DNA of 32,000 bases from Candidatus Saccharimonadota bacterium. Its GTDB lineage: Archaea > Micrarchaeota > Micrarchaeia > Micrarchaeales > Micrarchaeaceae. Made by a program: the position numbers and the translations under genes. Shown here one piece after another: positions 7,557 to 26,408 of this stretch. The DNA lies in assembly GCF_002214165.1 (NCBI RefSeq), contig NZ_CP019964.1, forward strand, positions 570,001-602,000, written 5' to 3'. Under the pieces are notes generated by a model. The model saw nothing but the letters and a program-made list of their open reading frames with translations, did no database searches and was not told where the DNA came from. Numbering within the stretch: the first letter of the stretch is position 1; each line of letters opens with the position of its first letter.

Positions 7557-7663
7557 GTGTTAGACTAAAACCTGCAAAATAATCTCATAAATTCATAAAT
7601 AAAGTAATGAAACAATTTCATCTGCTTAAAAAACGATAATGCAAAAGAAACAATATTAAGAAG

Positions 7664-8074: not shown

Positions 8075-8083
8075 CGGTGGGAT
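8059..8083 (+). repeat. IS left-end (LE) imperfect palindrome/hairpin
   Basis: atcccacacgc ttta gcggtgggat: a 10-bp stem with one bulged A and a TTTA loop. Confidence 0.8.
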
Positions 8084-8120
8084 GAAAGCGAACTGCTGAA
8101 TAAAGTAAAGGTGTATAAAT

Positions 8121-9368: not shown

Positions 9369-9412
9369 CGTAGAGGAAGCCCACACCGTTTACGGGTGGG
9401 AGGATGTCACAT
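9200..9412 (+). ncRNA. candidate TnpB omega-RNA (reRNA) scaffold overlapping the tnpB 3' end and RE
   Basis: This call is inference only. In characterised TnpB systems the guide RNA derives from the 3' end of tnpB plus the right end. The strong RE hairpin at 9380..9400 would be part of it. Boundaries are guesses. Confidence 0.3.
9380..9400 (+). repeat. IS right-end (RE) imperfect palindrome/hairpin
   Basis: cccacaccg ttta cgggtggg: an 8-bp stem with a bulged A and a TTTA loop. It is near-identical in sequence and architecture to the LE hairpin. Confidence 0.8.
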
Positions 9413-9471
9413 GATATAAATAATCCTTATGAAAATATTCCTTCTTGCTATGTCTCTAGATAGGTGTACAA

Positions 9472-9735
9472 ATGAATTATAATCAATTAATAATAAAGAA
9501 ACGGGAGGATATGGGCAAAATATACATATTTTTCCCACATAAAGGTACTATATTAGAAACAGAATGTAATGATGTAAATGCAGTATATAATTTATTGGAA
9601 TATATTAAAAATAAGCATATCAATGAATTAGAAAATTTCAGCAAAGACAAAAGGATATCAAAAGAAACACTTGACACTGTGAAAGAAATTTACTTAGACC
9701 TAAAGGATATAGGCATAAATTTTAATACCCTGTGA
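9472..9735 (+). CDS. hypothetical small protein
   Basis: 87-aa ORF that is Lys/Glu/Asn-rich, with no recognisable motif. It ends 4 nt before the next gene on the same strand. Confidence 0.4.
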   Translation: MNYNQLIIKKREDMGKIYIFFPHKGTILETECNDVNAVYNLLEYIKNKHINELENFSKDKRISKETLDTVKEIYLDLKDIGINFNTL

Positions 9736-9739
9736 TTTA

Positions 9740-10975: not shown

Positions 10976-11040
10976 AACTTCAGATAGCTATAAATGCGAT
11001 TTAGTCAAAATTCATGGCCTTCCGGCATCTCTACAAAACC

Positions 11041-11064
11041 AATTTAGTTTACCTTAACTAAATT
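11041..11064. repeat. perfect 9-bp inverted repeat (AATTTAGTT-N6-AACTAAATT)
   Basis: Seen directly, 66 nt downstream of the methyltransferase stop. Function unknown; it could be a terminator-like hairpin or a binding site. Confidence 0.5.
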
Positions 11065-11303
11065 TATATTGTCATAGTGCAGCTCTCACTAAATATATAT
11101 ATCGCACCATATTCCAAACTATAAGGGAACTTTTAACCAAAAGCTAAATCGCCATTTTTACCATGCTCTTGCATAAGCAGGAACCTTCCGTGTTTTATAT
11201 TTTTAAGTCACATCTTTATCCAATCACCAAGAATAATATTGGCAGGTTTTTACTATCGAAAGATAAATATTTAAGAATCTGACTTCGTAAGTAATATGAT
11301 ACA

Positions 11304-12203
11304 ATGAAGTCCCAATCCGCAATGGAATACCTGATGACATACGGATGGGCAATCCTCATAATTGCAATCGTACTTGCTGCATTATACTCTATAGGAATCT
11401 TCAACCCAAACACATTTGCCCCAAAAGCATCTGCAGGATCATGCGAGGTTGTCAGGCCTTCAGGTCCAGGGACGACTAGCGATCTGGGCCTTGAGGGGAC
11501 ATGCACCAACATGCTTCCAAAATACGTCAGCGTTTTCAATGGCCAAAATATATATGCAAATGCTAATTTAAGCAGGGTATTTAAGGACGAAGGGCAGCCT
11601 TTCACTATAACTATATGGCGATATAATGAAAAAGGGACAGATTGCGAGGATAGTGAATTGAGGTTAACCTCAAATGGTCATTCATTATTTAGAGCTGGGT
11701 TATCAGGAACCGGTGGACTTGATAGTTTTCCTGCAAATGATGAAGAAATGTTTGAACTTTGGAATAATAGCGGTTCACAGTATAATTACTTCGGAAATAA
11801 AAGCACAAACTTAAACACGTGGTACTTTTTGACATTTACATATAATGGAAGCTATGTAAAAGCATATATTGACGGAAATCCGGATTTGAACGAAGACTTT
11901 GGCAAGACTAACACCGGAGGAAATATAATCAGGTTCGGCACAGATTTAGGCACTGGGTGCAATGATTTATTTGACGGGATGATGGCAAATGTGCAGATAT
12001 ACAATACGGCCTTATCCACCGGCCAAGTGGAACATCTTTACCAGGAAGGTATAGGCGGAGACCCTATTGATCTCACGCATCTTGTCGGATGGTGGCCGTT
12101 TAATGGCAATGCGAATGACTATTCTGGAAATGATTATGATGGTAAAGTATCCGGTACAATAGGTTATTCCTCAACCTGGTATACGGCATACTCTGCACCA
12201 TAA
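11304..12203 (+). CDS. class III signal peptide (type IV pilin-like) + LamG/ConA-like domain protein, core type A
   Basis: The N-terminus MKSQSAMEYLMTYGWAILIIAIVLAALY is a short polar leader, a QSAME motif and a hydrophobic helix, which is the archaeal class III signal. LamG_3 hallmark strands are FTITIWRYN, NTWYFLTFTYNGSYVKAYIDGNP and GMMANVQIYNTALSTGQVEHLY. It carries the family C-module ...GGDPIDLTHLVGWWPFNGNANDYSGN...YSAP. Confidence 0.85.
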   Translation: MKSQSAMEYLMTYGWAILIIAIVLAALYSIGIFNPNTFAPKASAGSCEVVRPSGPGTTSDLGLEGTCTNMLPKYVSVFNGQNIYANANLSRVFKDEGQPFTITIWRYNEKGTDCEDSELRLTSNGHSLFRAGLSGTGGLDSFPANDEEMFELWNNSGSQYNYFGNKSTNLNTWYFLTFTYNGSYVKAYIDGNPDLNEDFGKTNTGGNIIRFGTDLGTGCNDLFDGMMANVQIYNTALSTGQVEHLYQEGIGGDPIDLTHLVGWWPFNGNANDYSGNDYDGKVSGTIGYSSTWYTAYSAP

Positions 12204-12232
12204 ACCAATTAAATTAACATTTTGATAAACTG

Positions 12233-12265
12233 CTAATTGACAAAAATGTAAAAATAGTCAATTAG
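12233..12265. repeat. perfect 9-bp inverted repeat (CTAATTGAC-N15-GTCAATTAG)
   Basis: Seen directly in the gap between the type A LamG gene and the ATPase gene. It could act as a terminator or an operator. Confidence 0.5.
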
Positions 12266-12307
12266 TAATAGTTTATTTTAAATATTTTAGCATTTATAAT
12301 TATATGT

Positions 12308-13570
12308 ATGAACATCGAGAACGCTATACTAAGGTATAAAGATTATGGCAAAGGCGTAAAGTTGATAGATAGAGATGCAACTTTATCAAAAGCCAATTTT
12401 ATTAACTCCCTAATTGGTCCTAGAAGAGCAGGTAAAAGTTCAATAATGCTATTGTATATGAATGAACTGCGCAAAGAAAACAAAAAAGTCATTTTTATAA
12501 ATGGCGAAGATATAGATTTTGAAGGCTTGACTGTAGAGGGTTTAGATAAAATAGAAATTGAGATAAGGCGCATATACGATATAAGTTCACAAGAAAAAGT
12601 ATACTTGTTCATAGACGAGATTCAAAATTTTCCTTATTGGTCAAAATGGGTAAGGACATTGTTTGATGAAAATTATTATAATCTAATTATATCTGGATCA
12701 ACTTCGGAATTATCGGGAGAACAATTGCCAATACAACTCAGGGGAAGATCAATAGAAACATTAGTGCTGCCTTTTTCTTTCAAGGAATACTGCAAAGCAA
12801 AGCATATAAATTATGAAAAATATATGAATTTTGAGGATACTGCGTCAATATTAAATGCATTTTCAGATTTTATGCTATATGGAGGATATCCCGAGGTTGT
12901 AAAATCAGATGATACCGAATTCAAGAAACAGATACTATCAAACATATATACTATGGTCATGCAAAAAGATCTCATAGATAAATATAATATAAGGAAAAAA
13001 GCGGAATTTAGATTGTTCACAAATTCATTATTTGCATCTGCATGCAGAAATTTTTCAATAGAAAATATGCTGAAATTTTTAAGCAGTAAGGAATTAAATA
13101 TTAGTAGACAAGCAGCCTTGAACTACCTAGACTATTCAGAGTCTGTATTTTTAATACATCTAATTTACCCGTATTCTAAAAAGCTAAAGGTGCGCCTTAC
13201 CAACCCCCGCATCTATCCAATTGATCAGGGCATCATGAGATTATTTACCAATGATGATGGGAAATCACTAGAAGATATAGCATTCATAGAGTTGTTCAGG
13301 AGAAAGGAAAATGTAATGTATTACAAGTCAAATAAAAGCGATGTTGATTTCGCCGTTGTAGAAAGTGACGAGATAAAAGAACTGATACAGGTTAGCTATT
13401 CTATAGATGAACCTAATGCTTATATTAGGGAGACAGATTCATTGAAAAATGCGTCCAAAGAAACAGGGTGCACAAACTTAAAGATTCTAACTTTTAATGA
13501 AGAGAGTGTAATAAAGATAGAAAATTTATCAATCAATGTTATCCCTGTATGGAAATGGCTTTTGAGTTAA
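12308..13570 (+). CDS. AAA_14 / DUF4143-family ATPase (COG1373-like)
   Basis: Walker A GPRRAGKSS and Walker B LFIDEIQNFPYW, with the typical 400-aa-class architecture and a C-terminal DUF4143-like region (FIELFRR...DFAV). Confidence 0.8.
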   Translation: MNIENAILRYKDYGKGVKLIDRDATLSKANFINSLIGPRRAGKSSIMLLYMNELRKENKKVIFINGEDIDFEGLTVEGLDKIEIEIRRIYDISSQEKVYLFIDEIQNFPYWSKWVRTLFDENYYNLIISGSTSELSGEQLPIQLRGRSIETLVLPFSFKEYCKAKHINYEKYMNFEDTASILNAFSDFMLYGGYPEVVKSDDTEFKKQILSNIYTMVMQKDLIDKYNIRKKAEFRLFTNSLFASACRNFSIENMLKFLSSKELNISRQAALNYLDYSESVFLIHLIYPYSKKLKVRLTNPRIYPIDQGIMRLFTNDDGKSLEDIAFIELFRRKENVMYYKSNKSDVDFAVVESDEIKELIQVSYSIDEPNAYIRETDSLKNASKETGCTNLKILTFNEESVIKIENLSINVIPVWKWLLS

Positions 13571-13630
13571 CTCTTCTGTAATCCTATGTATAATGTTTAT
13601 AAATTTTTATAACAAAACAATTCTGATATA

Positions 13631-14491
13631 ATGAAGTCCCAATCCGCAATGGAATACCTGATGACATACGGATGGGCGATCCTTGTCATTGCAATTGTCC
13701 TTGCAGCACTTTATTCTTTAGGTATATTCAATCCAAGCACATTTGCTCCAAAAGCATCCGCAGGTTCCTGCGAGGTTGTACGACCTTTCGGTCCAACCAC
13801 AAGTACTGATGTTCATCTTGAGGGAACGTGCACCAACATGCTTCCTAAATATGTTGCAAGTTTCAATGGAGCTGATAGTGGCATAACAATAAGTTCACCA
13901 TCTGAATTTCCTGCCAGTTCTGAGCCAGGAATAAGTATTTTTGTTTGGATAAAAACAACAAGATCTAGCGAGGGTGTGTTTGAGTACTATTCCCCGTCAA
14001 ACAATATATGTGAAGGTAGTGTAAGATTAGAAGTATCCCCTAAACTACAAGCAGATTTTTCATGTGATGCTATATCTAATGGACCAGTGTTAGACAACAA
14101 CACTTGGAATTTTGTTGGTTGGACTCTTAAGAGCGGTACATCTAAGGTAATACTTTATGTAAATGGAATACCATATGGTCCATATCAAATTACCCCAATC
14201 AACGTTCCCACAACTGGCTTAGAAGGGTTAATAGGTGCTCCATATCCTGGTTGGCCATATTATTATGGTTCAATGTCAAATGTTCAACTTTACAACACAG
14301 CTCTTTCATCAAATCAAATTACTGCTCTTTACGATGAAGGTATCGGAGGTGATCCAATTGATTTACAAAATCTTGTTGGCTGGTGGCCACTTAATGGCAA
14401 TTCAAACGACTATTCTGGGAATAATAACAACGGAAAAGCAACAAATATCGCATATTCATCAACTTGGTACAGAACATATTCCGCACCTTAA
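13631..14491 (+). CDS. class III signal peptide + LamG/ConA-like domain protein, core type B (array copy 1)
   Basis: Same N-module (MKSQSAMEYLMTYGWAILVIAIVLAALY...EGTCTNMLPKYVA). LamG strands ISIFVWIKTT, NTWNFVGWTLKSGTSKVILYVNGIP and GSMSNVQLYNTALSSNQITALY. C-module ends ...YSAP. It differs from copies 2-4 by I22V and S57T. Confidence 0.85.
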   Translation: MKSQSAMEYLMTYGWAILVIAIVLAALYSLGIFNPSTFAPKASAGSCEVVRPFGPTTSTDVHLEGTCTNMLPKYVASFNGADSGITISSPSEFPASSEPGISIFVWIKTTRSSEGVFEYYSPSNNICEGSVRLEVSPKLQADFSCDAISNGPVLDNNTWNFVGWTLKSGTSKVILYVNGIPYGPYQITPINVPTTGLEGLIGAPYPGWPYYYGSMSNVQLYNTALSSNQITALYDEGIGGDPIDLQNLVGWWPLNGNSNDYSGNNNNGKATNIAYSSTWYRTYSAP

Positions 14492-14590
14492 TTAATCAGA
14501 AAATTAAATCCAATAAAGTTTCGATTAATGGTACTGCCAAATAATTTTCAATATTCAATTATAGTACTCACGGAATTCAATTAATAAGGT

Positions 14591-14619
14591 ATAAATATCT
14601 TTATCCATAAATATCTTTA
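14591..14619 (+). promoter_or_regulatory. tandem 13-bp direct repeat ATAAATATCTTTA-tcc-ATAAATATCTTTA abutting the MNT start; putative TATA box plus operator
   Basis: Seen directly. The first ATAAATAT lies at -31..-24 and the second at -15..-8 relative to the ATG at 14622. The downstream protein has an RHH-like N-terminus that could bind such repeats. Confidence 0.45.
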
Positions 14620-14621
14620 AT

Positions 14622-15122
14622 ATGAACACTAAAGTTTATATTGACGATAAATTAGCCGAAAAGTGGAAAGAGCTAGCAATGAAACGCTTTGGGTATGGTA
14701 GAGGCTCAATAAGCAAAGCTGCGGAGGAAGCTCTATCAATGTGGGTAGAGAAAGAGCAAATAGTAACAACCGCATTTGAAAAGCTTAAAGAAGCCGCAAT
14801 AGGTGAAAAGAATATATTAGCACTTCTTCTATTTGGAAGCTATGCAAGAAAAGAACCTTATCATGATATTGATATTGCAATAGTAATCGAAAGTAATGCA
14901 GATAAACTAAAAGTCTTATCTATTATTGAAAGTTCTGTACCTGAAGAACCCAGATTTGATTTTTCCATATTCAACGATATGCCAATGAATATGAAAAGCA
15001 GAGTACTCAACGAATGTATAGTGATATACAACAGAAAGGATTATGATCTAAAAGAGGTAAGTTCTGATATAATAATCAAATGGTCCGATATAAAGCCTAT
15101 TATTGATTCTGCACTGGTGTAA
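14622..15122 (+). CDS. minimal nucleotidyltransferase (MntA-type antitoxin) with N-terminal ribbon-helix-helix-like extension
   Basis: NTase motif LLLFGSYARKEPYHDIDIAIVI (GS...DxD). The N-terminal 45 aa or so (KVYIDDKLAEKWKELAMKRFGYGRGSISKAAEEALSMWVEKE) have a strand-helix-loop-helix RHH pattern. The stop lies 2 nt before the HEPN gene. Confidence 0.8.
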   Translation: MNTKVYIDDKLAEKWKELAMKRFGYGRGSISKAAEEALSMWVEKEQIVTTAFEKLKEAAIGEKNILALLLFGSYARKEPYHDIDIAIVIESNADKLKVLSIIESSVPEEPRFDFSIFNDMPMNMKSRVLNECIVIYNRKDYDLKEVSSDIIIKWSDIKPIIDSALV

Positions 15123-15124
15123 GC

Positions 15125-15544
15125 ATGATTGATACGGAGCGTATTGTTAGAAGACTTGCAGATATAAAGCATTATTCTAATGTATTAAGCAAAATAGTTC
15201 CCAACAATTATGATGATTATATAAAATCGGACATCACCACCAAGGCTGCTGTTGAAAGATATTTACAACTAATAAATGATTTGGAGTTGGAGGTACTTGT
15301 ACTCGCATACAAAGGTCTTGATTTAGGCATATCTGGAGGTGATGATTCACTTGTAAATAAATTTAACGATCTACTCAGTAAAAAAGCAATAGAGGGATTT
15401 AAAAAAAGAAGATCGCTGAGAAACATATTAGTACACGCTTATTTTGAAATGCATTACGACAAGGACACTTTCAATCAGGCAAACGATCTCAGCGATATTA
15501 AAGATTTTGTAAAAGGCATAAGATTAATTTTGGAAAAGCAATAA
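15125..15544 (+). CDS. HEPN-domain (DUF86/HepT-type) toxin
   Basis: 139 aa and helical. The C-proximal RRSLRNILVHAYFEM contains the Rx4HxY HEPN RNase motif. It forms an operon with the upstream MNT. Confidence 0.8.
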   Translation: MIDTERIVRRLADIKHYSNVLSKIVPNNYDDYIKSDITTKAAVERYLQLINDLELEVLVLAYKGLDLGISGGDDSLVNKFNDLLSKKAIEGFKKRRSLRNILVHAYFEMHYDKDTFNQANDLSDIKDFVKGIRLILEKQ

Positions 15545-15570
15545 TTTAATTCACAAAACAAAATTAAAGT

Positions 15571-15604
15571 TTAAATAATTTTATAACATAACAATTCTGA
15601 TATA
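15571..15604 (+). promoter_or_regulatory. conserved upstream block of the LamG paralogs (TTAAATAA..TTTATAACA[A/T]AACAATTCTGATATA-ATG)
   Basis: TTTATAACA[A/T]AACAATTCTGATATA directly abuts the ATG of the genes at 13631, 15605, 17579, 19553, 21527, 22461 and 23392. A shorter ATATGATA[T/C]A-ATG version precedes 11304 and 26409. TATA-like boxes lie within about 35 nt of the ATG and there is no purine-rich SD, which suggests leaderless or very short-leader mRNAs. Confidence 0.45.
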
Positions 15605-16465
15605 ATGAAGTCCCAATCCGCAATGGAATACCTGATGACATACGGATGGGCAATCCTTGTCATTGCGGTTGTTCTTGCAGCATTATACTCTTTAGGTATA
15701 TTCAATCCAAGCACATTTGCTCCAAAAGCATCCGCAGGTTCCTGCGAGGTTGTACGACCTTTCGGTCCAACTACAACAACGGATGTTCATCTTGAGGGAA
15801 CGTGCACCAACATGCTTCCTAAATATGTTGCAAGTTTCAATGGAGCTGATAGTGGCATAACAATAAGTTCACCATCTGAATTTCCTGCCAGTTCTGAGCC
15901 AGGAATAAGTATTTTTGTTTGGATAAAAACAACAAGATCTAGCGAGGGTGTGTTTGAGTACTATTCCCCGTCAAACAATATATGTGAAGGTAGTGTAAGA
16001 TTAGAAGTATCCCCTAAACTACAAGCAGATTTTTCATGTGATGCTATATCTAATGGACCAGTGTTAGACAACAACACTTGGAATTTTGTTGGTTGGACTC
16101 TTAAGAGCGGTACATCTAAGGTAATACTTTATGTAAATGGAATACCATATGGTCCATATCAAATTACCCCAATCAACGTTCCCACAACTGGCTTAGAAGG
16201 GTTAATAGGTGCTCCATATCCTGGTTGGCCATATTATTATGGTTCAATGTCAAATGTTCAACTTTACAACACAGCTCTTTCATCAAATCAAATTACTGCT
16301 CTTTACGATGAAGGTATCGGAGGTGATCCAATTGATTTACAAAATCTTGTTGGCTGGTGGCCACTTAATGGCAATTCAAACGACTATTCTGGGAATAATA
16401 ACAACGGAAAAGCAACAAATATCGCATATTCATCAACTTGGTACAGAACATATTCCGCACCTTAA
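15605..16465 (+). CDS. class III signal peptide + LamG/ConA-like domain protein, core type B (array copy 2)
   Basis: Protein identical to copies 3 and 4. Motifs as for 13631..14491. Confidence 0.85.
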   Translation: MKSQSAMEYLMTYGWAILVIAVVLAALYSLGIFNPSTFAPKASAGSCEVVRPFGPTTTTDVHLEGTCTNMLPKYVASFNGADSGITISSPSEFPASSEPGISIFVWIKTTRSSEGVFEYYSPSNNICEGSVRLEVSPKLQADFSCDAISNGPVLDNNTWNFVGWTLKSGTSKVILYVNGIPYGPYQITPINVPTTGLEGLIGAPYPGWPYYYGSMSNVQLYNTALSSNQITALYDEGIGGDPIDLQNLVGWWPLNGNSNDYSGNNNNGKATNIAYSSTWYRTYSAP

Positions 16466-16564
16466 TTAATCAGAAAATTAAATCCAATAAAGTTTCGATT
16501 AATGGTACTGCCAAATAATTTTCAATATTCAATTATAGTACTCACGGAATTCAATTAATAAGGT

Positions 16565-16593
16565 ATAAATATCTTTATCCATAAATATCTTTA
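16565..16593 (+). promoter_or_regulatory. tandem 13-bp direct repeat upstream of MNT (copy 2)
   Basis: Same sequence as 14591..14619, shifted by 1974 bp. Confidence 0.45.
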
Positions 16594-16595
16594 AT

Positions 16596-17096
16596 ATGAA
16601 CACTAAAGTTTATATTGACGATAAATTAGCCGAAAAGTGGAAAGAGCTAGCAATGAAACGCTTTGGGTATGGTAGAGGCTCAATAAGCAAAGCTGCGGAG
16701 GAAGCTCTATCAATGTGGGTAGAGAAAGAGCAAATAGTAACAACCGCATTTGAAAAGCTTAAAGAAGCCGCAATAGGTGAAAAGAATATATTAGCACTTC
16801 TTCTATTTGGAAGCTATGCAAGAAAAGAACCTTATCATGATATTGATATTGCAATAGTAATCGAAAGTAATGCAGATAAACTAAAAGTCTTATCTATTAT
16901 TGAAAGTTCTGTACCTGAAGAACCCAGATTTGATTTTTCCATATTCAACGATATGCCAATGAATATGAAAAGCAGAGTACTCAACGAATGTATAGTGATA
17001 TACAACAGAAAGGATTATGATCTAAAAGAGGTAAGTTCTGATATAATAATCAAATGGTCCGATATAAAGCCTATTATTGATTCTGCACTGGTGTAA
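16596..17096 (+). CDS. RHH-MNT nucleotidyltransferase antitoxin (copy 2)
   Basis: Protein identical to 14622..15122. Confidence 0.8.
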   Translation: MNTKVYIDDKLAEKWKELAMKRFGYGRGSISKAAEEALSMWVEKEQIVTTAFEKLKEAAIGEKNILALLLFGSYARKEPYHDIDIAIVIESNADKLKVLSIIESSVPEEPRFDFSIFNDMPMNMKSRVLNECIVIYNRKDYDLKEVSSDIIIKWSDIKPIIDSALV

Positions 17097-17098
17097 GC

Positions 17099-17518
17099 AT
17101 GATTGATACGGAGCGTATTGTTAGAAGACTTGCAGATATAAAGCATTATTCTAATGTATTAAGCAAAATAGTTCCCAACAATTATGATGATTATATAAAA
17201 TCGGACATCACCACCAAGGCTGCTGTTGAAAGATATTTACAACTAATAAATGATTTGGAGTTGGAGGTACTTGTACTCGCATACAAAGGTCTTGATTTAG
17301 GCATATCTGGAGGTGATGATTCACTTGTAAATAAATTTAACGATCTACTCAGTAAAAAAGCAATAGAGGGATTTAAAAAAAGAAGATCGCTGAGAAACAT
17401 ATTAGTACACGCTTATTTTGAAATGCATTACGACAAGGACACTTTCAATCAGGCAAACGATCTCAGCGATATTAAAGATTTTGTAAAAGGCATAAGATTA
17501 ATTTTGGAAAAGCAATAA
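17099..17518 (+). CDS. HEPN/HepT toxin (copy 2)
   Basis: Protein identical to 15125..15544. Confidence 0.8.
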   Translation: MIDTERIVRRLADIKHYSNVLSKIVPNNYDDYIKSDITTKAAVERYLQLINDLELEVLVLAYKGLDLGISGGDDSLVNKFNDLLSKKAIEGFKKRRSLRNILVHAYFEMHYDKDTFNQANDLSDIKDFVKGIRLILEKQ

Positions 17519-17578
17519 TTTAATTCACAAAACAAAATTAAAGTTTAAATAATTTTATAACATAACAATTCTGATATA

Positions 17579-18439
17579 ATGAAGTCCCAATCCGCAATGG
17601 AATACCTGATGACATACGGATGGGCAATCCTTGTCATTGCGGTTGTTCTTGCAGCATTATACTCTTTAGGTATATTCAATCCAAGCACATTTGCTCCAAA
17701 AGCATCCGCAGGTTCCTGCGAGGTTGTACGACCTTTCGGTCCAACTACAACAACGGATGTTCATCTTGAGGGAACGTGCACCAACATGCTTCCTAAATAT
17801 GTTGCAAGTTTCAATGGAGCTGATAGTGGCATAACAATAAGTTCACCATCTGAATTTCCTGCCAGTTCTGAGCCAGGAATAAGTATTTTTGTTTGGATAA
17901 AAACAACAAGATCTAGCGAGGGTGTGTTTGAGTACTATTCCCCGTCAAACAATATATGTGAAGGTAGTGTAAGATTAGAAGTATCCCCTAAACTACAAGC
18001 AGATTTTTCATGTGATGCTATATCTAATGGACCAGTGTTAGACAACAACACTTGGAATTTTGTTGGTTGGACTCTTAAGAGCGGTACATCTAAGGTAATA
18101 CTTTATGTAAATGGAATACCATATGGTCCATATCAAATTACCCCAATCAACGTTCCCACAACTGGCTTAGAAGGGTTAATAGGTGCTCCATATCCTGGTT
18201 GGCCATATTATTATGGTTCAATGTCAAATGTTCAACTTTACAACACAGCTCTTTCATCAAATCAAATTACTGCTCTTTACGATGAAGGTATCGGAGGTGA
18301 TCCAATTGATTTACAAAATCTTGTTGGCTGGTGGCCACTTAATGGCAATTCAAACGACTATTCTGGGAATAATAACAACGGAAAAGCAACAAATATCGCA
18401 TATTCATCAACTTGGTACAGAACATATTCCGCACCTTAA
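17579..18439 (+). CDS. class III signal peptide + LamG/ConA-like domain protein, core type B (array copy 3)
   Basis: Protein identical to copy 2. Confidence 0.85.
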   Translation: MKSQSAMEYLMTYGWAILVIAVVLAALYSLGIFNPSTFAPKASAGSCEVVRPFGPTTTTDVHLEGTCTNMLPKYVASFNGADSGITISSPSEFPASSEPGISIFVWIKTTRSSEGVFEYYSPSNNICEGSVRLEVSPKLQADFSCDAISNGPVLDNNTWNFVGWTLKSGTSKVILYVNGIPYGPYQITPINVPTTGLEGLIGAPYPGWPYYYGSMSNVQLYNTALSSNQITALYDEGIGGDPIDLQNLVGWWPLNGNSNDYSGNNNNGKATNIAYSSTWYRTYSAP

Positions 18440-18538
18440 TTAATCAGAAAATTAAATCCAATAAAGTTTCGATTAATGGTACTGCCAAATAATTTTCAAT
18501 ATTCAATTATAGTACTCACGGAATTCAATTAATAAGGT

Positions 18539-18567
18539 ATAAATATCTTTATCCATAAATATCTTTA
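18539..18567 (+). promoter_or_regulatory. tandem 13-bp direct repeat upstream of MNT (copy 3)
   Basis: Same sequence as 14591..14619, shifted by 2 x 1974 bp. Confidence 0.45.
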
Positions 18568-18569
18568 AT

Positions 18570-19070
18570 ATGAACACTAAAGTTTATATTGACGATAAAT
18601 TAGCCGAAAAGTGGAAAGAGCTAGCAATGAAACGCTTTGGGTATGGTAGAGGCTCAATAAGCAAAGCTGCGGAGGAAGCTCTATCAATGTGGGTAGAGAA
18701 AGAGCAAATAGTAACAACCGCATTTGAAAAGCTTAAAGAAGCCGCAATAGGTGAAAAGAATATATTAGCACTTCTTCTATTTGGAAGCTATGCAAGAAAA
18801 GAACCTTATCATGATATTGATATTGCAATAGTAATCGAAAGTAATGCAGATAAACTAAAAGTCTTATCTATTATTGAAAGTTCTGTACCTGAAGAACCCA
18901 GATTTGATTTTTCCATATTCAACGATATGCCAATGAATATGAAAAGCAGAGTACTCAACGAATGTATAGTGATATACAACAGAAAGGATTATGATCTAAA
19001 AGAGGTAAGTTCTGATATAATAATCAAATGGTCCGATATAAAGCCTATTATTGATTCTGCACTGGTGTAA
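18570..19070 (+). CDS. RHH-MNT nucleotidyltransferase antitoxin (copy 3)
   Basis: Protein identical to 14622..15122. Confidence 0.8.
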   Translation: MNTKVYIDDKLAEKWKELAMKRFGYGRGSISKAAEEALSMWVEKEQIVTTAFEKLKEAAIGEKNILALLLFGSYARKEPYHDIDIAIVIESNADKLKVLSIIESSVPEEPRFDFSIFNDMPMNMKSRVLNECIVIYNRKDYDLKEVSSDIIIKWSDIKPIIDSALV

Positions 19071-19072
19071 GC

Positions 19073-19492
19073 ATGATTGATACGGAGCGTATTGTTAGAA
19101 GACTTGCAGATATAAAGCATTATTCTAATGTATTAAGCAAAATAGTTCCCAACAATTATGATGATTATATAAAATCGGACATCACCACCAAGGCTGCTGT
19201 TGAAAGATATTTACAACTAATAAATGATTTGGAGTTGGAGGTACTTGTACTCGCATACAAAGGTCTTGATTTAGGCATATCTGGAGGTGATGATTCACTT
19301 GTAAATAAATTTAACGATCTACTCAGTAAAAAAGCAATAGAGGGATTTAAAAAAAGAAGATCGCTGAGAAACATATTAGTACACGCTTATTTTGAAATGC
19401 ATTACGACAAGGACACTTTCAATCAGGCAAACGATCTCAGCGATATTAAAGATTTTGTAAAAGGCATAAGATTAATTTTGGAAAAGCAATAA
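19073..19492 (+). CDS. HEPN/HepT toxin (copy 3)
   Basis: Protein identical to 15125..15544. Confidence 0.8.
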   Translation: MIDTERIVRRLADIKHYSNVLSKIVPNNYDDYIKSDITTKAAVERYLQLINDLELEVLVLAYKGLDLGISGGDDSLVNKFNDLLSKKAIEGFKKRRSLRNILVHAYFEMHYDKDTFNQANDLSDIKDFVKGIRLILEKQ

Positions 19493-19552
19493 TTTAATTC
19501 ACAAAACAAAATTAAAGTTTAAATAATTTTATAACATAACAATTCTGATATA

Positions 19553-20413
19553 ATGAAGTCCCAATCCGCAATGGAATACCTGATGACATACGGATGGGCA
19601 ATCCTTGTCATTGCGGTTGTTCTTGCAGCATTATACTCTTTAGGTATATTCAATCCAAGCACATTTGCTCCAAAAGCATCCGCAGGTTCCTGCGAGGTTG
19701 TACGACCTTTCGGTCCAACTACAACAACGGATGTTCATCTTGAGGGAACGTGCACCAACATGCTTCCTAAATATGTTGCAAGTTTCAATGGAGCTGATAG
19801 TGGCATAACAATAAGTTCACCATCTGAATTTCCTGCCAGTTCTGAGCCAGGAATAAGTATTTTTGTTTGGATAAAAACAACAAGATCTAGCGAGGGTGTG
19901 TTTGAGTACTATTCCCCGTCAAACAATATATGTGAAGGTAGTGTAAGATTAGAAGTATCCCCTAAACTACAAGCAGATTTTTCATGTGATGCTATATCTA
20001 ATGGACCAGTGTTAGACAACAACACTTGGAATTTTGTTGGTTGGACTCTTAAGAGCGGTACATCTAAGGTAATACTTTATGTAAATGGAATACCATATGG
20101 TCCATATCAAATTACCCCAATCAACGTTCCCACAACTGGCTTAGAAGGGTTAATAGGTGCTCCATATCCTGGTTGGCCATATTATTATGGTTCAATGTCA
20201 AATGTTCAACTTTACAACACAGCTCTTTCATCAAATCAAATTACTGCTCTTTACGATGAAGGTATCGGAGGTGATCCAATTGATTTACAAAATCTTGTTG
20301 GCTGGTGGCCACTTAATGGCAATTCAAACGACTATTCTGGGAATAATAACAACGGAAAAGCAACAAATATCGCATATTCATCAACTTGGTACAGAACATA
20401 TTCCGCACCTTAA
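19553..20413 (+). CDS. class III signal peptide + LamG/ConA-like domain protein, core type B (array copy 4)
   Basis: Protein identical to copy 2. Confidence 0.85.
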   Translation: MKSQSAMEYLMTYGWAILVIAVVLAALYSLGIFNPSTFAPKASAGSCEVVRPFGPTTTTDVHLEGTCTNMLPKYVASFNGADSGITISSPSEFPASSEPGISIFVWIKTTRSSEGVFEYYSPSNNICEGSVRLEVSPKLQADFSCDAISNGPVLDNNTWNFVGWTLKSGTSKVILYVNGIPYGPYQITPINVPTTGLEGLIGAPYPGWPYYYGSMSNVQLYNTALSSNQITALYDEGIGGDPIDLQNLVGWWPLNGNSNDYSGNNNNGKATNIAYSSTWYRTYSAP

Positions 20414-20512
20414 TTAATCAGAAAATTAAATCCAATAAAGTTTCGATTAATGGTACTGCCAAATAATTTTCAATATTCAATTATAGTACTCACGGAATTC
20501 AATTAATAAGGT

Positions 20513-20541
20513 ATAAATATCTTTATCCATAAATATCTTTA
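20513..20541 (+). promoter_or_regulatory. tandem 13-bp direct repeat upstream of MNT (copy 4)
   Basis: Same sequence as 14591..14619, shifted by 3 x 1974 bp. Confidence 0.45.
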
Positions 20542-20543
20542 AT

Positions 20544-21044
20544 ATGAACACTAAAGTTTATATTGACGATAAATTAGCCGAAAAGTGGAAAGAGCTAGCA
20601 ATGAAACGCTTTGGGTATGGTAGAGGCTCAATAAGCAAAGCTGCGGAGGAAGCTCTATCAATGTGGGTAGAGAAAGAGCAAATAGTAACAACCGCATTTG
20701 AAAAGCTTAAAGAAGCCGCAATAGGTGAAAAGAATATATTAGCACTTCTTCTATTTGGAAGCTATGCAAGAAAAGAACCTTATCATGATATTGATATTGC
20801 AATAGTAATCGAAAGTAATGCAGATAAACTAAAAGTCTTATCTATTATTGAAAGTTCTGTACCTGAAGAACCCAGATTTGATTTTTCCATATTCAACGAT
20901 ATGCCAATGAATATGAAAAGCAGAGTACTCAACGAATGTATAGTGATATACAACAGAAAGGATTATGATCTAAAAGAGGTAAGTTCTGATATAATAATCA
21001 AATGGTCCGATATAAAGCCTATTATTGATTCTGCACTGGTGTAA
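20544..21044 (+). CDS. RHH-MNT nucleotidyltransferase antitoxin (copy 4)
   Basis: Protein identical to 14622..15122. Confidence 0.8.
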   Translation: MNTKVYIDDKLAEKWKELAMKRFGYGRGSISKAAEEALSMWVEKEQIVTTAFEKLKEAAIGEKNILALLLFGSYARKEPYHDIDIAIVIESNADKLKVLSIIESSVPEEPRFDFSIFNDMPMNMKSRVLNECIVIYNRKDYDLKEVSSDIIIKWSDIKPIIDSALV

Positions 21045-21046
21045 GC

Positions 21047-21466
21047 ATGATTGATACGGAGCGTATTGTTAGAAGACTTGCAGATATAAAGCATTATTCT
21101 AATGTATTAAGCAAAATAGTTCCCAACAATTATGATGATTATATAAAATCGGACATCACCACCAAGGCTGCTGTTGAAAGATATTTACAACTAATAAATG
21201 ATTTGGAGTTGGAGGTACTTGTACTCGCATACAAAGGTCTTGATTTAGGCATATCTGGAGGTGATGATTCACTTGTAAATAAATTTAACGATCTACTCAG
21301 TAAAAAAGCAATAGAGGGATTTAAAAAAAGAAGATCGCTGAGAAACATATTAGTACACGCTTATTTTGAAATGCATTACGACAAGGACACTTTCAATCAG
21401 GCAAACGATCTCAGCGATATTAAAGATTTTGTAAAAGGCATAAGATTAATTTTGGAAAAGCAATAA
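21047..21466 (+). CDS. HEPN/HepT toxin (copy 4)
   Basis: Protein identical to 15125..15544. Confidence 0.8.
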   Translation: MIDTERIVRRLADIKHYSNVLSKIVPNNYDDYIKSDITTKAAVERYLQLINDLELEVLVLAYKGLDLGISGGDDSLVNKFNDLLSKKAIEGFKKRRSLRNILVHAYFEMHYDKDTFNQANDLSDIKDFVKGIRLILEKQ

Positions 21467-21526
21467 TTTAATTCACAAAACAAAATTAAAGTTTAAATAA
21501 TTTTATAACATAACAATTCTGATATA

Positions 21527-22417
21527 ATGAAGTCCCAATCCGCAATGGAATACCTGATGACATACGGATGGGCAATCCTTGTCATTGCGGTTGTTCTTGC
21601 AGCATTATACTCTTTAGGTATATTCAATCCTTCTTCTTTTGCTCCAAAGGCATCGGCAGGATCCTGCGAAGTTGTAAGACCCTTCGGTCCAACCACAAGT
21701 ACTGATGTTCATCTTGAGGGAACGTGCACCAACATGCTTCCAAAGTATGTTGCAAGTTTAAATGGCAATGATGGTTACGTATATTCAAATATAAGCAGTT
21801 TACCAGAGGGTAAACAGCCAAGAACAGTTATTGTATGGTTTTATTTGACCGCTGAACCATCAACTAGTAATGGGCAATCTGCAATATTTGCTTATGGTAC
21901 TGCAAATACCTGCGATGAAACCTTTTGGGTTTCTGCAACAACACCAAGTTCTACTTGTGATAACAGTGAATTATTTATTGATAATTGGTGCACATGCCAA
22001 AGTTTTCCAGATGTCCCAACAATTAGTTTAGATCGTTGGTATTTTGTTGCAGACGAATATAATGGAACTTACCAGATTGGTTACTTAAGTGATAATGGTT
22101 CTATTATATCAATCAATTCGCAACAATTAGGAGTTAATACTGGAGAATCTCCTTTTTATATAGGTTACTGGACAGTGAGAGGATATTTTCCAGGCATGAT
22201 TGCCAATTTGCAAATATACAATAAATCCCTTTCATCAAATCAAATTAGTGCACTTTACGATGAAGGCATAGGCGGCGACCCAATCGACCTTACACATTTA
22301 GTTGCATGGTACCCCCTAAATGGCAATGCACAAGATTATTCAGGAAATAATTATAATGGAAAAGCATTCAATGTCTCATATTCCTCAACCTGGTACAGAA
22401 CATATTCCGCACCTTAA
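21527..22417 (+). CDS. class III signal peptide + LamG/ConA-like domain protein, core type C
   Basis: Same N-module; its first 104 nt are identical to array copies 2-4. The core is distinct (RTVIVWFYLT, DRWYFVADEYNGTYQIGYLSDNG, GMIANLQIYNKSLSSNQISALY). The C-module is ...DLTHLVAWYPLNGNAQDYSGNNYNGKAFNVSYSSTWYRTYSAP. Confidence 0.85.
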   Translation: MKSQSAMEYLMTYGWAILVIAVVLAALYSLGIFNPSSFAPKASAGSCEVVRPFGPTTSTDVHLEGTCTNMLPKYVASLNGNDGYVYSNISSLPEGKQPRTVIVWFYLTAEPSTSNGQSAIFAYGTANTCDETFWVSATTPSSTCDNSELFIDNWCTCQSFPDVPTISLDRWYFVADEYNGTYQIGYLSDNGSIISINSQQLGVNTGESPFYIGYWTVRGYFPGMIANLQIYNKSLSSNQISALYDEGIGGDPIDLTHLVAWYPLNGNAQDYSGNNYNGKAFNVSYSSTWYRTYSAP

Positions 22418-24143
22418 TAAATTAATTTTTAATACTTTATAACAAAACAATTCTGATATAATGAAGTCCCAATCCGCAATGGAGTACCTGATGACGTATG
22501 GATGGGCAATCCTTGTCATTGCAGTTGTTCTTGCAGCACTATATTCTCTCGGAATCTTCAATCCAAGCACTTTTGCCCCAAAAGCATCTGCAGGATCATG
22601 TGAGGTTGTCCGGCCTTTTGGTCCGACTACAACTACAGATATCCATCTTGAAGGCACCTGCACCAACATGCTTCCTAAATATGTAGCGCAGTTTAATGGA
22701 AAGGGAAGCACAGGGATAACACTTAACACATATAACTTCAACACTACACCGTTTACAATATCTTTCTGGGAATATTATTTAGGATATACCACTTGTTATA
22801 CATCTAGTAATGGGGGCAATTGCGGTGAAAATGTAACTATGTATATAAATCCTAATAAATGTAGCTCTACCCCTAATTATCTGTGTGTTATAGATTTTGA
22901 CCTTAGAACTACAAGCTTGCATTGGTTTACATGGGATAGGGATATTTTTTACCCAGTCCAAACTGGAAAATGGCTCTTTATTACATGGACTTATAACCCA
23001 GCAAATAAAAACAATATTTCTGCTTACTTAAATGGAAAGTTTGTTGGTGGAAATACAGGCAGCAATGTTGTGTTAGATGGACAAATAGAACTTGGAGAAG
23101 GCGGCAGTATGGGAAGCATAGATGGATATGTATCTAATTTCCAAATCTATAACTCCTCCCTTTCAGCAAATCAAATTAGTGCACTTTACGATGAAGGCAT
23201 AGGCGGCGACCCAATCGACCTTACACATTTAGTTGCATGGTACCCCCTAAATGGCAATGCACAAGATTATTCAGGAAATAATTATAATGGAAAAGCATTC
23301 AATGTCTCATATTCCTCAACCTGGTACAGAACATATTCCGCACCTTAATAAATTAATTTTTAATACTTTATAACAAAACAATTCTGATATAATGAAGTCC
23401 CAATCCGCAATGGAGTACCTGATGACGTATGGATGGGCAATCCTTGTCATTGCAGTTGTTCTTGCAGCACTATATTCTCTCGGAATCTTCAATCCAAGCA
23501 CTTTTGCCCCAAAAGCATCTGCAGGATCATGTGAGGTTGTCCGGCCTTTTGGTCCGACTACAACTACAGATATCCATCTTGAAGGCACCTGCACCAACAT
23601 GCTTCCTAAATATGTAGCGCAGTTTAATGGAAAGGGAAGCACAGGGATAACACTTAACACATATAACTTCAACACTACACCGTTTACAATATCTTTCTGG
23701 GAATATTATTTAGGATATACCACTTGTTATACATCTAGTAATGGGGGCAATTGCGGTGAAAATGTAACTATGTATATAAATCCTAATAAATGTAGCTCTA
23801 CCCCTAATTATCTGTGTGTTATAGATTTTGACCTTAGAACTACAAGCTTGCATTGGTTTACATGGGATAGGGATATTTTTTACCCAGTCCAAACTGGAAA
23901 ATGGCTCTTTATTACATGGACTTATAACCCAGCAAATAAAAACAATATTTCTGCTTACTTAAATGGAAAGTTTGTTGGTGGAAATACAGGCAGCAATGTT
24001 GTGTTAGATGGACAAATAGAACTTGGAGAAGGCGGCAGTATGGGAAGCATAGATGGATATGTATCTAATTTCCAAATCTATAACTCCTCCCTTTCAGCAA
24101 ATCAAATTAGTGCACTTTACGATGAAGGCATAGGCGGCGACCC
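22236..24143 (+). repeat. tandem duplication, 2 copies (plus about 40 bp of a third) of a 931-bp unit
   Basis: CAAATTAGTGCACTTTACGATGAAGGCATAGGCGGCGACCC recurs at 22241, 23172 and 24103 (spacing 931 bp). Gene starts 22461 and 23392 are also 931 bp apart. The unit runs from the 3' module of one LamG gene to the same point in the next. Confidence 0.9.
22461..23348 (+). CDS. class III signal peptide + LamG/ConA-like domain protein, core type D (copy 1)
   Basis: Same N-module but with many synonymous differences from type B and C genes. Core strands are FTISFWEYY, GKWLFITWTYNPANKNNISAYLNGKFV and GYVSNFQIYNSSLSANQISALY. The last 43 aa or so and the downstream spacer are identical to those of 21527..22417. 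Confidence 0.85.
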   Translation: MKSQSAMEYLMTYGWAILVIAVVLAALYSLGIFNPSTFAPKASAGSCEVVRPFGPTTTTDIHLEGTCTNMLPKYVAQFNGKGSTGITLNTYNFNTTPFTISFWEYYLGYTTCYTSSNGGNCGENVTMYINPNKCSSTPNYLCVIDFDLRTTSLHWFTWDRDIFYPVQTGKWLFITWTYNPANKNNISAYLNGKFVGGNTGSNVVLDGQIELGEGGSMGSIDGYVSNFQIYNSSLSANQISALYDEGIGGDPIDLTHLVAWYPLNGNAQDYSGNNYNGKAFNVSYSSTWYRTYSAP

Positions 24144-24279
24144 TATCGATTTAACGAATCTTGTAGGCTGGTGGCCATTGAACGGCAATGCAAACGACTA
24201 TTCAGGCAATGATTATAACGGTAAAGGGGTTGACGTAGGCTATTCACCAACATGGTACAGAACCTATTCAGCGCCTTAA
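23392..24279 (+). CDS. class III signal peptide + LamG/ConA-like domain protein, core type D (copy 2, different C-module variant)
   Basis: Identical to 22461..23348 until GGDPIDLT. It then switches to NLVGWWPLNGNANDYSGNDYNGKGVDVGYSPTWYRTYSAP. Confidence 0.85.
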   Translation: MKSQSAMEYLMTYGWAILVIAVVLAALYSLGIFNPSTFAPKASAGSCEVVRPFGPTTTTDIHLEGTCTNMLPKYVAQFNGKGSTGITLNTYNFNTTPFTISFWEYYLGYTTCYTSSNGGNCGENVTMYINPNKCSSTPNYLCVIDFDLRTTSLHWFTWDRDIFYPVQTGKWLFITWTYNPANKNNISAYLNGKFVGGNTGSNVVLDGQIELGEGGSMGSIDGYVSNFQIYNSSLSANQISALYDEGIGGDPIDLTNLVGWWPLNGNANDYSGNDYNGKGVDVGYSPTWYRTYSAP

Positions 24280-24430
24280 AGCAATCTCGAATCTTCATTT
24301 GAATGCATCGTTTACGATTTGCCTTTTTATCGATGCAATAGTTCACCAGCTGTTCACTATTAATTCCAATTATAAAAGCAGATCACGGCTCACATATCAC
24401 GAAATACAGCACAGGAATAAAAACAGTCCG

Positions 24431-26287
24431 CTAGTCATCATATCTTGATTTCCACTCGATGCTTTCAGAGCTCCAGAACTGCTTCATCCTCTCCAAGTAG
24501 TCTTTTCCTTCGTAAAGTGCGAAGAAGTTCTTTATGAGCATCTTGTAGTTCTTCCATTCATACCTGCTGTCCATGAATATTATGGAGGCTTTGTCGCTTT
24601 CGCTCCTTATCGCCCTGCCTGCAGCCTGTATAGCTCTTATGACAGCAGGGATAGTATAGATATATTCTATTCCGCTTTCATGGAATTTCTTGTTCATATA
24701 GTTTATCCTTGCCTGCAGTTCAAGGTCCGGCTTTGTTAAAGGTATGCCAACTATAACAATGCATTTTATTGAATTGTTGTCGTAGTTTATACCCTCGCTC
24801 AGGCTTCCCCCCATGACTCCTAGCATCAAGCCTTTCTTTGAGGCCTTGAACTCGTTTATCAGCCTCTCAACCTCTATATTGCTCATTGCCTTACGCTGTA
24901 TGAAGGCCTCGCTTATCCTGCCTAAATCAAGGTAGCGGTAGGTGCTTTCAAGCATGCTGAAGCTTGGGAAAAATACAGATGTGTTGCCTGGTATTGAAGA
25001 GTATATTCCATTTATCTTGGATGCGATTGACCTGTAGAGATCCGTGGTCCTGCCTGTGAACTTAGTGGACACCGTAGAGTCTATAGCAACAAACTGCTTG
25101 TCCTTCGAGAATGGTGATTTGTAGCTTTTTGTATCCGCTCCCTCCACTCCAAGTATATCCCTGTACATCTCCAAGGGTATAAGCGTGCCGCTCATGAAAA
25201 CATTTGCGTATGCTTCCTTGAATACCGAAAGCGCCCTTTCAGGGTAAAGATTGCTTAGCTTCAGCTCAACCCTGCCTCCGCCTCTTGCAATTATCCTTGT
25301 AGTGGCTGCGTCAGAAGATTCCCAACCCTGCAGGAATGACGCTATATGCATTAATGATGAACGCTTAGCATGCTTGTTCTCTATATACATCATTCCTGCC
25401 TTTTCCATATCCGAGATTATATCGCCAAGCATGTCCTTTTCCCCTGAAAGGAAATCAGACGAATCAACAAATGCCTCATTCTTTTCTATTGATAGCATTT
25501 TAGCTGCAAGCTTGTTCAATTCAAAGCTTAGGAAGCTAATGTCTATGTCGCTCGTTATCGCGGCTAGCTCTGCCGCCGCCCTGTTTATTACGTTCTCGGA
25601 TATTGAAGTGCTGAAATAGGAAACCGCCGAATTGAATATGTTGTGCGCTTCATCCCATATAATTATAGTATCAGATAAATCATGGGAAAGCTTTTTCAGG
25701 AAGGTCTCCTTGGTATAAGGATTTAGTATATGCGAATAGCCTGCTATTATTATATCAGCTTTCTTGGCAAACCTCATTGAGACCTCATAGGGGCACAGCC
25801 CTTCTTTGTAGGATTGGCTTAATATTGCATTATGCCCTTCAGAAAATGAATTTAGCATTTCGTAATCTCCGTCAAGGTCAAAATGCTTCAGCTTGTTGAA
25901 ATAAGGGCACTGATTCTTCTTTATGAGGTTCTCGCAGGCATTGTAGAAGGATGAGTCATAGATGTTGTTTACATCAGGGTTGATGCACATGTTCCTTTTG
26001 CCCACAACATCTACAAAGGATATTCCAAGGTTAAATTTTTGCTTCAACCCTCTGAGCACGTCTACCGCTATCCTATGCTGTGATATCTTTGGGGTTAGGA
26101 ACAGTATGTCCTTGTCATTCTTAATCGCATAGGTTATAGCTGCGCTTAATGAGGCATCTGTTTTTCCTATGCCTGTAGGCGCATTTATGAGGATGTCCTT
26201 CCCGTCCGAAAGAGAACTATATATATCTTTCATCATCTCTTTCTGGGATCCTCGTGCCTCGTCAAACCTAAATAAGAATTCTGTCAT
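24431..26287 (-). CDS. xpd: XPD/Rad3-family (DinG-like) Fe-S DNA helicase
   Basis: Motif I NAPTGIGKT and DEAH box IIWDEAHNI. Four Cys lie in the inserted Fe-S domain (NMCINP, NACENL, NQCPYF, GLCPYE). The C-terminal motif region is AIQAAGRAIRSESD. It is convergent with the preceding LamG gene. Confidence 0.85.
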   Translation of the reverse strand: MTEFLFRFDEARGSQKEMMKDIYSSLSDGKDILINAPTGIGKTDASLSAAITYAIKNDKDILFLTPKISQHRIAVDVLRGLKQKFNLGISFVDVVGKRNMCINPDVNNIYDSSFYNACENLIKKNQCPYFNKLKHFDLDGDYEMLNSFSEGHNAILSQSYKEGLCPYEVSMRFAKKADIIIAGYSHILNPYTKETFLKKLSHDLSDTIIIWDEAHNIFNSAVSYFSTSISENVINRAAAELAAITSDIDISFLSFELNKLAAKMLSIEKNEAFVDSSDFLSGEKDMLGDIISDMEKAGMMYIENKHAKRSSLMHIASFLQGWESSDAATTRIIARGGGRVELKLSNLYPERALSVFKEAYANVFMSGTLIPLEMYRDILGVEGADTKSYKSPFSKDKQFVAIDSTVSTKFTGRTTDLYRSIASKINGIYSSIPGNTSVFFPSFSMLESTYRYLDLGRISEAFIQRKAMSNIEVERLINEFKASKKGLMLGVMGGSLSEGINYDNNSIKCIVIVGIPLTKPDLELQARINYMNKKFHESGIEYIYTIPAVIRAIQAAGRAIRSESDKASIIFMDSRYEWKNYKMLIKNFFALYEGKDYLERMKQFWSSESIEWKSRYDD

Positions 26288-26408
26288 ATAAATCTAAAAC
26301 CTGCAATTACAGTTATCTTTCAAAGTATAAAAAGTTAAGTTATTCGGATTCTCAAACAGTTACAAAATCACCTTTTTAAACTTTATCTTAGAAAGAAGAT
26401 ATGATATA

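Follow-up and report, generated by a model that had tools for sequence, protein, structure and literature searches.

Within a 32,000-nucleotide window of the chromosome of Candidatus (Ca.) Mancarchaeum acidiphilum Mia14 (NZ_CP019964.1, positions 570,001 to 602,000, the whole stretch of DNA analysed here), a unit of 1974 nucleotides (nt) that carries a gene for a LamG-domain protein, LamG-286, followed by an MNT-HepT toxin-antitoxin (TA) pair is repeated head to tail at one constant period. The explanation we favor, and consider probable, is that a cluster of paralogous surface-protein genes was amplified by unequal homologous recombination, with the TA pair as a passenger. Mia14 is a 0.95-Mb Micrarchaeota (DPANN) episymbiont of Cuniculiplasma divulgatum, and its genome holds an expansion of LamG-like genes (arCOG07813, 18 members) at a locus on a genomic island, for which a role in host interaction was proposed (Golyshina et al. 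2017, PMC5498576). That genome paper never uses the word "tandem" and gives no account of the array and its junctions, of the TA pair within it, or of a 931-bp duplication nearby (below); the four copies are already listed in the published annotation of Mia14 (CP019964). The array adds a previously undescribed case to a known process; the mechanism is ordinary, the organism interesting.

Structure of the tandem array

The features of the array are as follows, in window coordinates.

13808-21630, plus strand: periodic tract, period 1974, 3.96 units, from the identity run at offset 1974 and the identical inner units
13631-14491, plus strand: LamG-286 copy 1 (GenBank ASI13922), by Pfam Laminin_G_3 and cluster look-up
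14622-15122, plus strand: MNT (MntA-like) antitoxin copy 1, by Pfam Polbeta and NTP_transf_2
15125-15544, plus strand: HepT toxin copy 1, by Pfam HepT-like and alignment to Shewanella HepT 6m6u/5yep
15605-16465, plus strand: LamG-286 copy 2, with a hybrid 5' end, identical to copies 3 and 4 by sequence comparison
16596-17518, plus strand: MNT (16596-17096) and HepT (17099-17518), copy 2
17579-18439, plus strand: LamG-286 copy 3
18570-19492, plus strand: MNT (18570-19070) and HepT (19073-19492), copy 3
19553-20413, plus strand: LamG-286 copy 4
20544-21466, plus strand: MNT (20544-21044) and HepT (21047-21466), copy 4
21527-22417, plus strand: LamG paralog p296, the right-hand recombination partner, by 5' end alignment

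Self-comparison at an offset of 1974 gave an unbroken run of identity from 13808 to 19656; the tract from 13808 to 21630 (7,823 nt) is perfectly periodic, and a repeat finder returned the same spacing. In the list of open reading frames (ORFs), LamG genes start at 13631, 15605, 17579, 19553, and 21527, exactly 1974 nt apart, with genes of 166 aa and 139 aa behind each of the first four. No difference separates the three full inner units, which start at 15565, 17539, and 19513 and are each 1974 nt long. In the LamG-286 gene, 11 nt distinguish copy 1 from copies 2-4, all within the first 177 nt (offsets 48, 63, 64, 69, 79, 81, 84, 168, 173, 174, and 177), resulting in two amino acid changes, I22V and S58T, and its upstream flank also differs from that of the later copies. 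At its right end, the array stops 104 nt into the gene at 21527. The LamG-286 proteins of copies 2-4 correspond to ASI13925/13928/13931 and the HepT protein to ASI13924/27/30/33 (cluster members).

An initial sequence-only reading of the window had described most of this: the spacing of the five LamG starts is borne out by the ORF list, the identity of copies 2-4 by the nucleotide comparison of the inner units, the confinement of copy 1 differences to its 5' start by the 11 positions (together with the flank), the end point inside the next paralog by the identity run and alignment, and the identities of the LamG, MNT, and HepT genes by Pfam.

Junction anatomy and proposed recombination between paralogs

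We aligned the 5' ends of all LamG paralogs in the cluster. Copies 2-4 are identical to p296 through the upstream region and up to gene offset 104, and from offset 105 on they are identical to copy 1 except at offsets 168, 173, 174, and 177. The new junction thus combines sequence from the homologs on either side, at a place where they were already alike, and we read this hybrid as the trace left by unequal homologous recombination within the conserved 5' module. It is marked by one diagnostic sequence, GCGGTTGTT...CACATTTGC, within the following feature.

15665-15720, plus strand: junction-specific 56-mer, with p296-type variants up to offset 84 and copy-1-type variants from offset 105 on

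This 56-mer recurs at +1974 and +3948 and is possible only with at least two tandem copies.

Homology suited to such exchange is present throughout the family. Among the five distinct LamG paralogs of the window, identity is 71-99% over the first ~230 nt and 56-84% over the last ~220 nt, falling to 20-49% in the core, and the conserved ends are kept at the protein level as well across 59 homologs from other Micrarchaeota. All paralogs thus share a 5' module of ~230 nt (promoter-proximal region, signal, and helix) and a 3' module of ~220 nt around a divergent core, and we propose that an unequal crossover between the 5' modules of LamG-286 and the gene at 21527 would have duplicated the intervening LamG-286 body and MNT-HepT operon. 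Later unequal exchanges between the 2-kb repeats could then have produced the four copies of the deposited sequence. The MNT-HepT operon would have been copied because it happened to lie between the recombining paralogs, as a passenger and not as the driver. The recombination pathway itself we infer from the junctions.

The sequence-only reading had likewise named unequal homologous recombination in the 5' module as the mechanism. The hybrid junction fits that proposal, but a single crossover leaves a 4-nt patch (offsets 168-177) unexplained, since in copies 2-4 it matches neither parent, copy 1 nor p296. No exact donor for the patch sequence ACTACAACAACG was found among the nine LamG genes of the window; a paralog from a related strain, P0145, has the same peptide, TTTTDV, as the patch region. 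One further short conversion or mutation step is needed in every scenario, a point that counts against the explanation we favor as well.

A second perfect tandem duplication, which was not part of the sequence-only account of the array, lies just beyond the first.

22236-24143, plus strand: tandem duplication, period 931, 2.05 units (22236-23212 identical to 23167-24143)
22461-23348 and 23392-24279, plus strand: LamG genes p295a and p295b, products of the 931 duplication

The proteins p295a and p295b differ only in their last ~45 codons, and the C-terminal tail of p295a is that of p296, which places this exchange in the conserved 3' module. We suggest that the p295 gene was duplicated independently of the larger array, but in a like manner, by recombination within the 3' module. 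With one junction in the 5' module (period 1974) and another in the 3' module (period 931), both family modules appear to have served as recombination substrates at a single locus.

Identical head-to-tail units could also arise if a small element, mobile or circular, with LamG, MNT, and HepT as its genes had integrated as a multimer. TA pairs are typical cargo of mobile elements and a TnpB gene lies 4 kb upstream, but the unit ends inside ordinary paralog homology and not at att or inverted-repeat (IR) sites. We rejected this reading, which we consider extremely improbable, as the unit holds no replication, integrase, or transposase gene and searches for tRNA and Rfam elements found none.

Copy number in short-read data

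The sequence-only reading had cautioned that repeats of this kind are an assembly hazard, and the caution is well founded. The procedure was that used for the Cuniculiplasma strains: Mia14 was sequenced on a HiSeq 2000 with reads of 100 nt, from paired ends of 400 bp and mate pairs of 3.6 kb, and assembled at 42x coverage with Velvet, scaffolding, and "repeat resolution" using Phrap/Consed and in-house software. No such data could cover the array from end to end, and a read from one inner copy could belong to any of them; the number four must therefore have been inferred, presumably from depth, and copies 2-4 are identical by construction. The exact count of four and the true identity of the inner copies lie beyond the resolution of short-read data. 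Four of the 18 arCOG07813 genes counted by Golyshina et al. (2017) are array copies of uncertain number; both that total and the perfect identity of the copies depend in part on a repeat too long for the sequencing to resolve.

Several observations weigh against a genuine multicopy array. No Mia14 read or mate pair could span the 7.8-kb array. Two independent short-read assemblies of the same clone, L001 (JGI 3300024473) and L002 (NCBI metagenome-assembled genome [MAG] GCA_027364975.1), carry one 1974 unit and one p295 gene, so that the 931 duplication too is collapsed or absent in them. When three 1974 units and one 931 unit are removed from the window, the remainder is identical to L001 over ~17 kb except at 13798, 13803, 13804, and 13807; L002 shows the same four differences and one more base, at window position 9119. 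At this patch (13798-13807; 5707-5716 in L001), L001 has the variant of copies 2-4 and Mia14 copy 1 has that of p296. The junction 56-mer was absent from the metagenome, genome, and viral collections searched, a weak negative because the source genome seems to be masked from them and the relevant samples are largely absent there, and the exact copy-1, copy-2, and p295a proteins were not found in any other dataset, again a weak negative since that index too seems to exclude the source genome. With the N-terminal 120 aa, which bear the junction, as the query, all matches were other paralogs of related strains. How little such negatives weigh can be seen from a 30-mer at the HepT end, which gave no match in the metagenome contigs although it is present in L001, indicating that the metagenome collection lacks the relevant samples.

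These data make it conceivable that the array is an assembly or finishing construct, with one real copy turned into four during manual or in-house repeat resolution. The short-read method and low depth, the single copy in two otherwise identical assemblies, and the lack of any independent trace of the junction are all consistent with this. However, short-read assemblers collapse tandem repeats and do not invent them, and the negative junction searches are weak. The junction-specific sequence and the two patch variants would have required real reads: a de Bruijn assembler with k >20 could not derive the junction 22-mer (offsets 84-105) from single-copy reads, nor the two patch variants that stand behind copy-1-type sequence, which argues for at least two copies. 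Collapse would also account for the four differences in L001 and L002, as the patch variant held by the majority of copies (three of four) would win the assembly bubble and the copy-1 variants at offsets 48-84 would be kept through their link to the unique flank. On balance we think a construct unlikely.

The alignments indicate that an allele, single-copy or collapsed, exists without other divergence from Mia14. L001 and L002 fit equally well with a true single-copy allele, in which case the amplifications would be extremely recent, and with collapse by the assembler. The patch difference could be due to a short gene conversion, to bubble-popping in the other assemblies, or to a finishing error. 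The TnpB gene marks the start of L001 and a LamG 5' module the end of L002, and both break at or within the TnpB gene; such contig ends fit short-read fragmentation at repeats. A third contig, L003 (a Logan contig from a Parys Mountain enrichment), covers the unit body only, and its ends (13816 and 15619) were rejected as evidence on copy number because they are explained by 31-mers shared with other paralogs. All other contigs with the unit are short fragments that hold no information on copy number. A single copy in other data had been proposed as the observation that would overturn the amplification; it was found in L001 and L002, but it is not decisive because short-read assemblers collapse tandem repeats, and short-read MAGs of this organism silently show one copy.

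Mixed haplotypes offer another route to the deposited sequence, in which the culture contained at least two Mia14 variants whose LamG-286 5' ends differed through gene conversion from p296, and finishing arranged them in tandem. The 5' modules are visibly mosaic, and a third variant of the 5' end (protein P0142) is present in L001 and L002. If conversion were the only process, the flank of the AAA_14 ATPase gene that lies directly upstream of the array would be retained, and 400-bp pairs would show that, but copies 2-4 are preceded by the HepT 3' end and not by this flank. Four copies would still require extra depth. We regard mixed haplotypes as very unlikely.

If unequal recombination did amplify the unit, the amplification may have been adaptive, arising or expanding in the two-year co-culture with Cuniculiplasma through an advantage of adhesin or TA dosage while environmental populations stayed single-copy. 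Mia14 spent 2-2.5 years in enrichment, Parys Mountain, its site of origin, later yielded the enrichment behind L003, and LamG proteins have been proposed as host-interaction factors (PMC5498576). Moreover, the lack of substitutions over ~17 kb relative to L001, outside the repeats and the patch, suggests that the events were very recent. But the single-copy state of L001 and L002 may be an effect of assembler collapse, and neutral amplifications also arise and last for short periods. We find the adaptive explanation doubtful. The boldest form of the idea, to which we likewise give only a small chance, is that the array is truly variable in copy number and grew from one to four copies in a single clone of an obligate episymbiont while it was co-cultured with its host. 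DPANN archaea would then use RecA/RadA-type unequal exchange between modular pilin-adhesin paralogs to change the dosage and variation of host-attachment proteins fast, and the type VII TA pair would merely travel with them.

Should amplification by unequal recombination be correct, it would mean that recombination keeps host-interaction genes plastic even though reduction has shaped the rest of the genome, and the array would be a simple marker, testable by PCR or read depth, for copy-number dynamics in DPANN-host co-culture.

Genes of the unit, genomic island, and known parallels

LamG-286 matched Laminin_G_3 (PF13385) with 48.6 bits against a threshold of 27.6 (E 1e-12). Its AlphaFold model (mean pLDDT 81.7, pTM 0.75) has a helix at residues 6-29 followed by a beta sandwich, and the best Foldseek matches were the LamG domain of PAPP-A, pentraxins, and neurexin LNS, with E values of about 1e-9. 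The N-terminus, MKS|QSAMEYLMTYGWAIL, places Q at +1 and E at +5 before the hydrophobic helix; this motif (MKS|QSAMEYL) and the helix at 6-29 are nearly invariant among the 59 homologs, with no match to the Pfam class III signal. LamG-286 resembles archaeal type IV pilin-like proteins (class III signal) in this arrangement, which begins with MKS as a short leader with charge and continues after the Q and E positions into ~24 residues of hydrophobic helix, but differs in that a C-terminal LamG head replaces the small globular domain of the pilins. "Pilin-like adhesin" is a reasonable putative label, the N-terminus being assigned from the motif alone. Two type IV pilus systems are reported for Mia14 along with a peptidase similar to FlaK (PMC5498576). 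Neither Makarova 2016 nor a preprint from 2026 that deals with type IV filaments of archaea mentions LamG pilins. The gene for P0140, a distant LamG homolog, stands alone among ribosomal protein genes, a context that is uninformative.

In the TA pair, MNT matched Polbeta (PF18765; 47.5 bits, E 2e-12) and NTP_transf_2 (PF01909; 28 bits), and its motif GSYARKEPYHDIDI fits GSx(9-11)DxD. HepT matched PF01934 with 34.7 bits against a cut-off of 23.5 (E 2e-8), and it aligned with Shewanella HepT 6m6u/5yep over its motif RNILVHAY (Rx4HxY). MNT lies directly upstream and HepT starts 2 nt past the MNT stop codon, the same antitoxin-first bicistron as in the type VII HepT-MntA system of Shewanella oneidensis (SO_3165/3166; PDB 5yep, 6m6u), and GSx9DxD in MNT and Rx4HxY with its tyrosine in HepT are common to both systems. 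In contrast to the Shewanella proteins, to which sequence similarity is distant, the Mia14 MNT has an N-terminal extension of ~50 aa (14622-14760) with weak similarity to RHH/CopG (RHH_1 E 0.11). The NCBIfam equivalog scores (MntA_antitoxin 40.1 and HepT_toxin 28.9 bits) fall below the cut-offs of 60, so we consider the pair distant members of the type VII family and not equivalogs, with predicted TA activity.

In every unit, both the LamG and the MNT gene have a TATA-like box ~31-34 nt before their start, which supports, at the level of sequence, the earlier proposal that each unit has promoters of its own, and the boxes may function as such. One of them is overlain by a repeat.

14591-14619, plus strand, repeated at +1974 three times: 13-nt direct repeat ATAAATATCTTTA, present twice over the TATA-like box of the MNT promoter (from sequence only)

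The ATAAATATCTTTA repeat may be a candidate autoregulatory operator for the RHH-MNT protein.

The sequence-only reading had also called a TA pair inside a surface-protein amplicon an unusual association, a view that needs qualification. The closest homologs of HepT (65-68% identity) and MNT (73%) come from other Micrarchaeota, where they adjoin a divergently transcribed AAA_14/DUF4143 ATPase gene or other defence-type genes and never LamG genes, so the association of TA pair and adhesin appears incidental. An ATPase of this kind is also present in the window.

12308-13570, plus strand: AAA_14/DUF4143 ATPase, directly upstream of the array, by Pfam

It is 26% identical to the relatives' ATPase beside MNT-HepT, and in Mia14 the LamG-286 gene lies between it and the TA pair. 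The AAA_14 ATPase, MNT, and HepT may form a three-gene module, and the TA pair is best read as accessory cargo of the island, copied between two recombining paralogs. Separately, we observed the AAA_14/DUF4143 ATPase as a recurrent immediate neighbor of this MNT-HepT subfamily, in divergent orientation, in several Micrarchaeota (L032 2868-5423, L034, L035, and L038). A variant of the unit with 98.5% nt identity occurs in other samples on short contigs that end in the same conserved LamG modules, indicating that the order LamG-286, MNT, HepT, next LamG is not confined to the sequenced culture.

Duplication-amplification by unequal recombination between direct repeats is a classic bacterial model, known for example from Salmonella and Escherichia coli with copies of insertion sequences (IS) or rrn. 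The Mia14 array has the same identical head-to-tail units, hybrid junction within homology, and expected instability of copy number, and the Mia14 clone likewise has an allele seen in single copy. It differs from the bacterial model in that the homology consists of modules of a paralogous surface-protein family and not of IS or rRNA genes, in that copy number is known from assembly alone, and in its host, a 0.95-Mb DPANN archaeon. Recombining families of surface proteins with conserved ends and variable cores are a second parallel, as in Neisseria pilE/pilS and Mycoplasma vsa/vlp. The LamG family resembles these in its conserved flanks, hypervariable center, mosaic 5' ends, and apparent core swapping around XPD, but in Mia14 each copy is a complete gene served by a separate TATA-like box, silent cassettes are absent, and any switching would be hypothetical.

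The array lies in a lineage-specific island together with further LamG genes, and one more LamG paralog lies beyond the island.

7557-24430, no strand: lineage-specific island, 16.9 kb, from the SPP protease gene to XPD, by synteny of relatives and low G+C
11304-12203, plus strand: LamG paralog p299, at the left end of the cluster, by Pfam
26409-27269, plus strand: LamG paralog p286d, on the far side of XPD

The G+C content of the island is 0.32-0.38, compared to 0.40-0.48 in the flanks, and it holds an ORF without family, TnpB, an FtsJ-like methyltransferase, the AAA_14 ATPase, four TA pairs, and eight LamG genes. The nearest species representative, L004 (amino acid identity 96% for MCM, 94% for SPP, and 94% for XPD), has a single LamG gene between SPP and XPD, and in the next relative, L005, SPP and XPD abut with no LamG gene between them.

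The variable cores of the two LamG genes that flank XPD (24431-27269) appear swapped relative to L004 (8962-12984), in which a p286d-like core (86%) is on the SPP side and a p296-like core (88%) on the h96 side. This swap around XPD suggests cassette exchange between paralogs.

A TnpB/IS605 OrfB gene (8121-9368) borders the island on the left, with no TnpA ORF evident next to it. The ORF that precedes it (7664-8074, 136 aa) has no Pfam match and is possibly the remnant of a gene. Long antisense ORFs, of 119-129 aa, cross LamG 5' modules (11216-11605, 22385-22744, and 23316-23675, all minus strand); they recur because the 5' module recurs and are probably not genes. In Ca. Micrarchaeum sp. A_DKE (NZ_CP060530.1; L012 and L013), two XPD matches ~14 kb apart are each ~49% identical to the Mia14 XPD and may represent a duplicated helicase.

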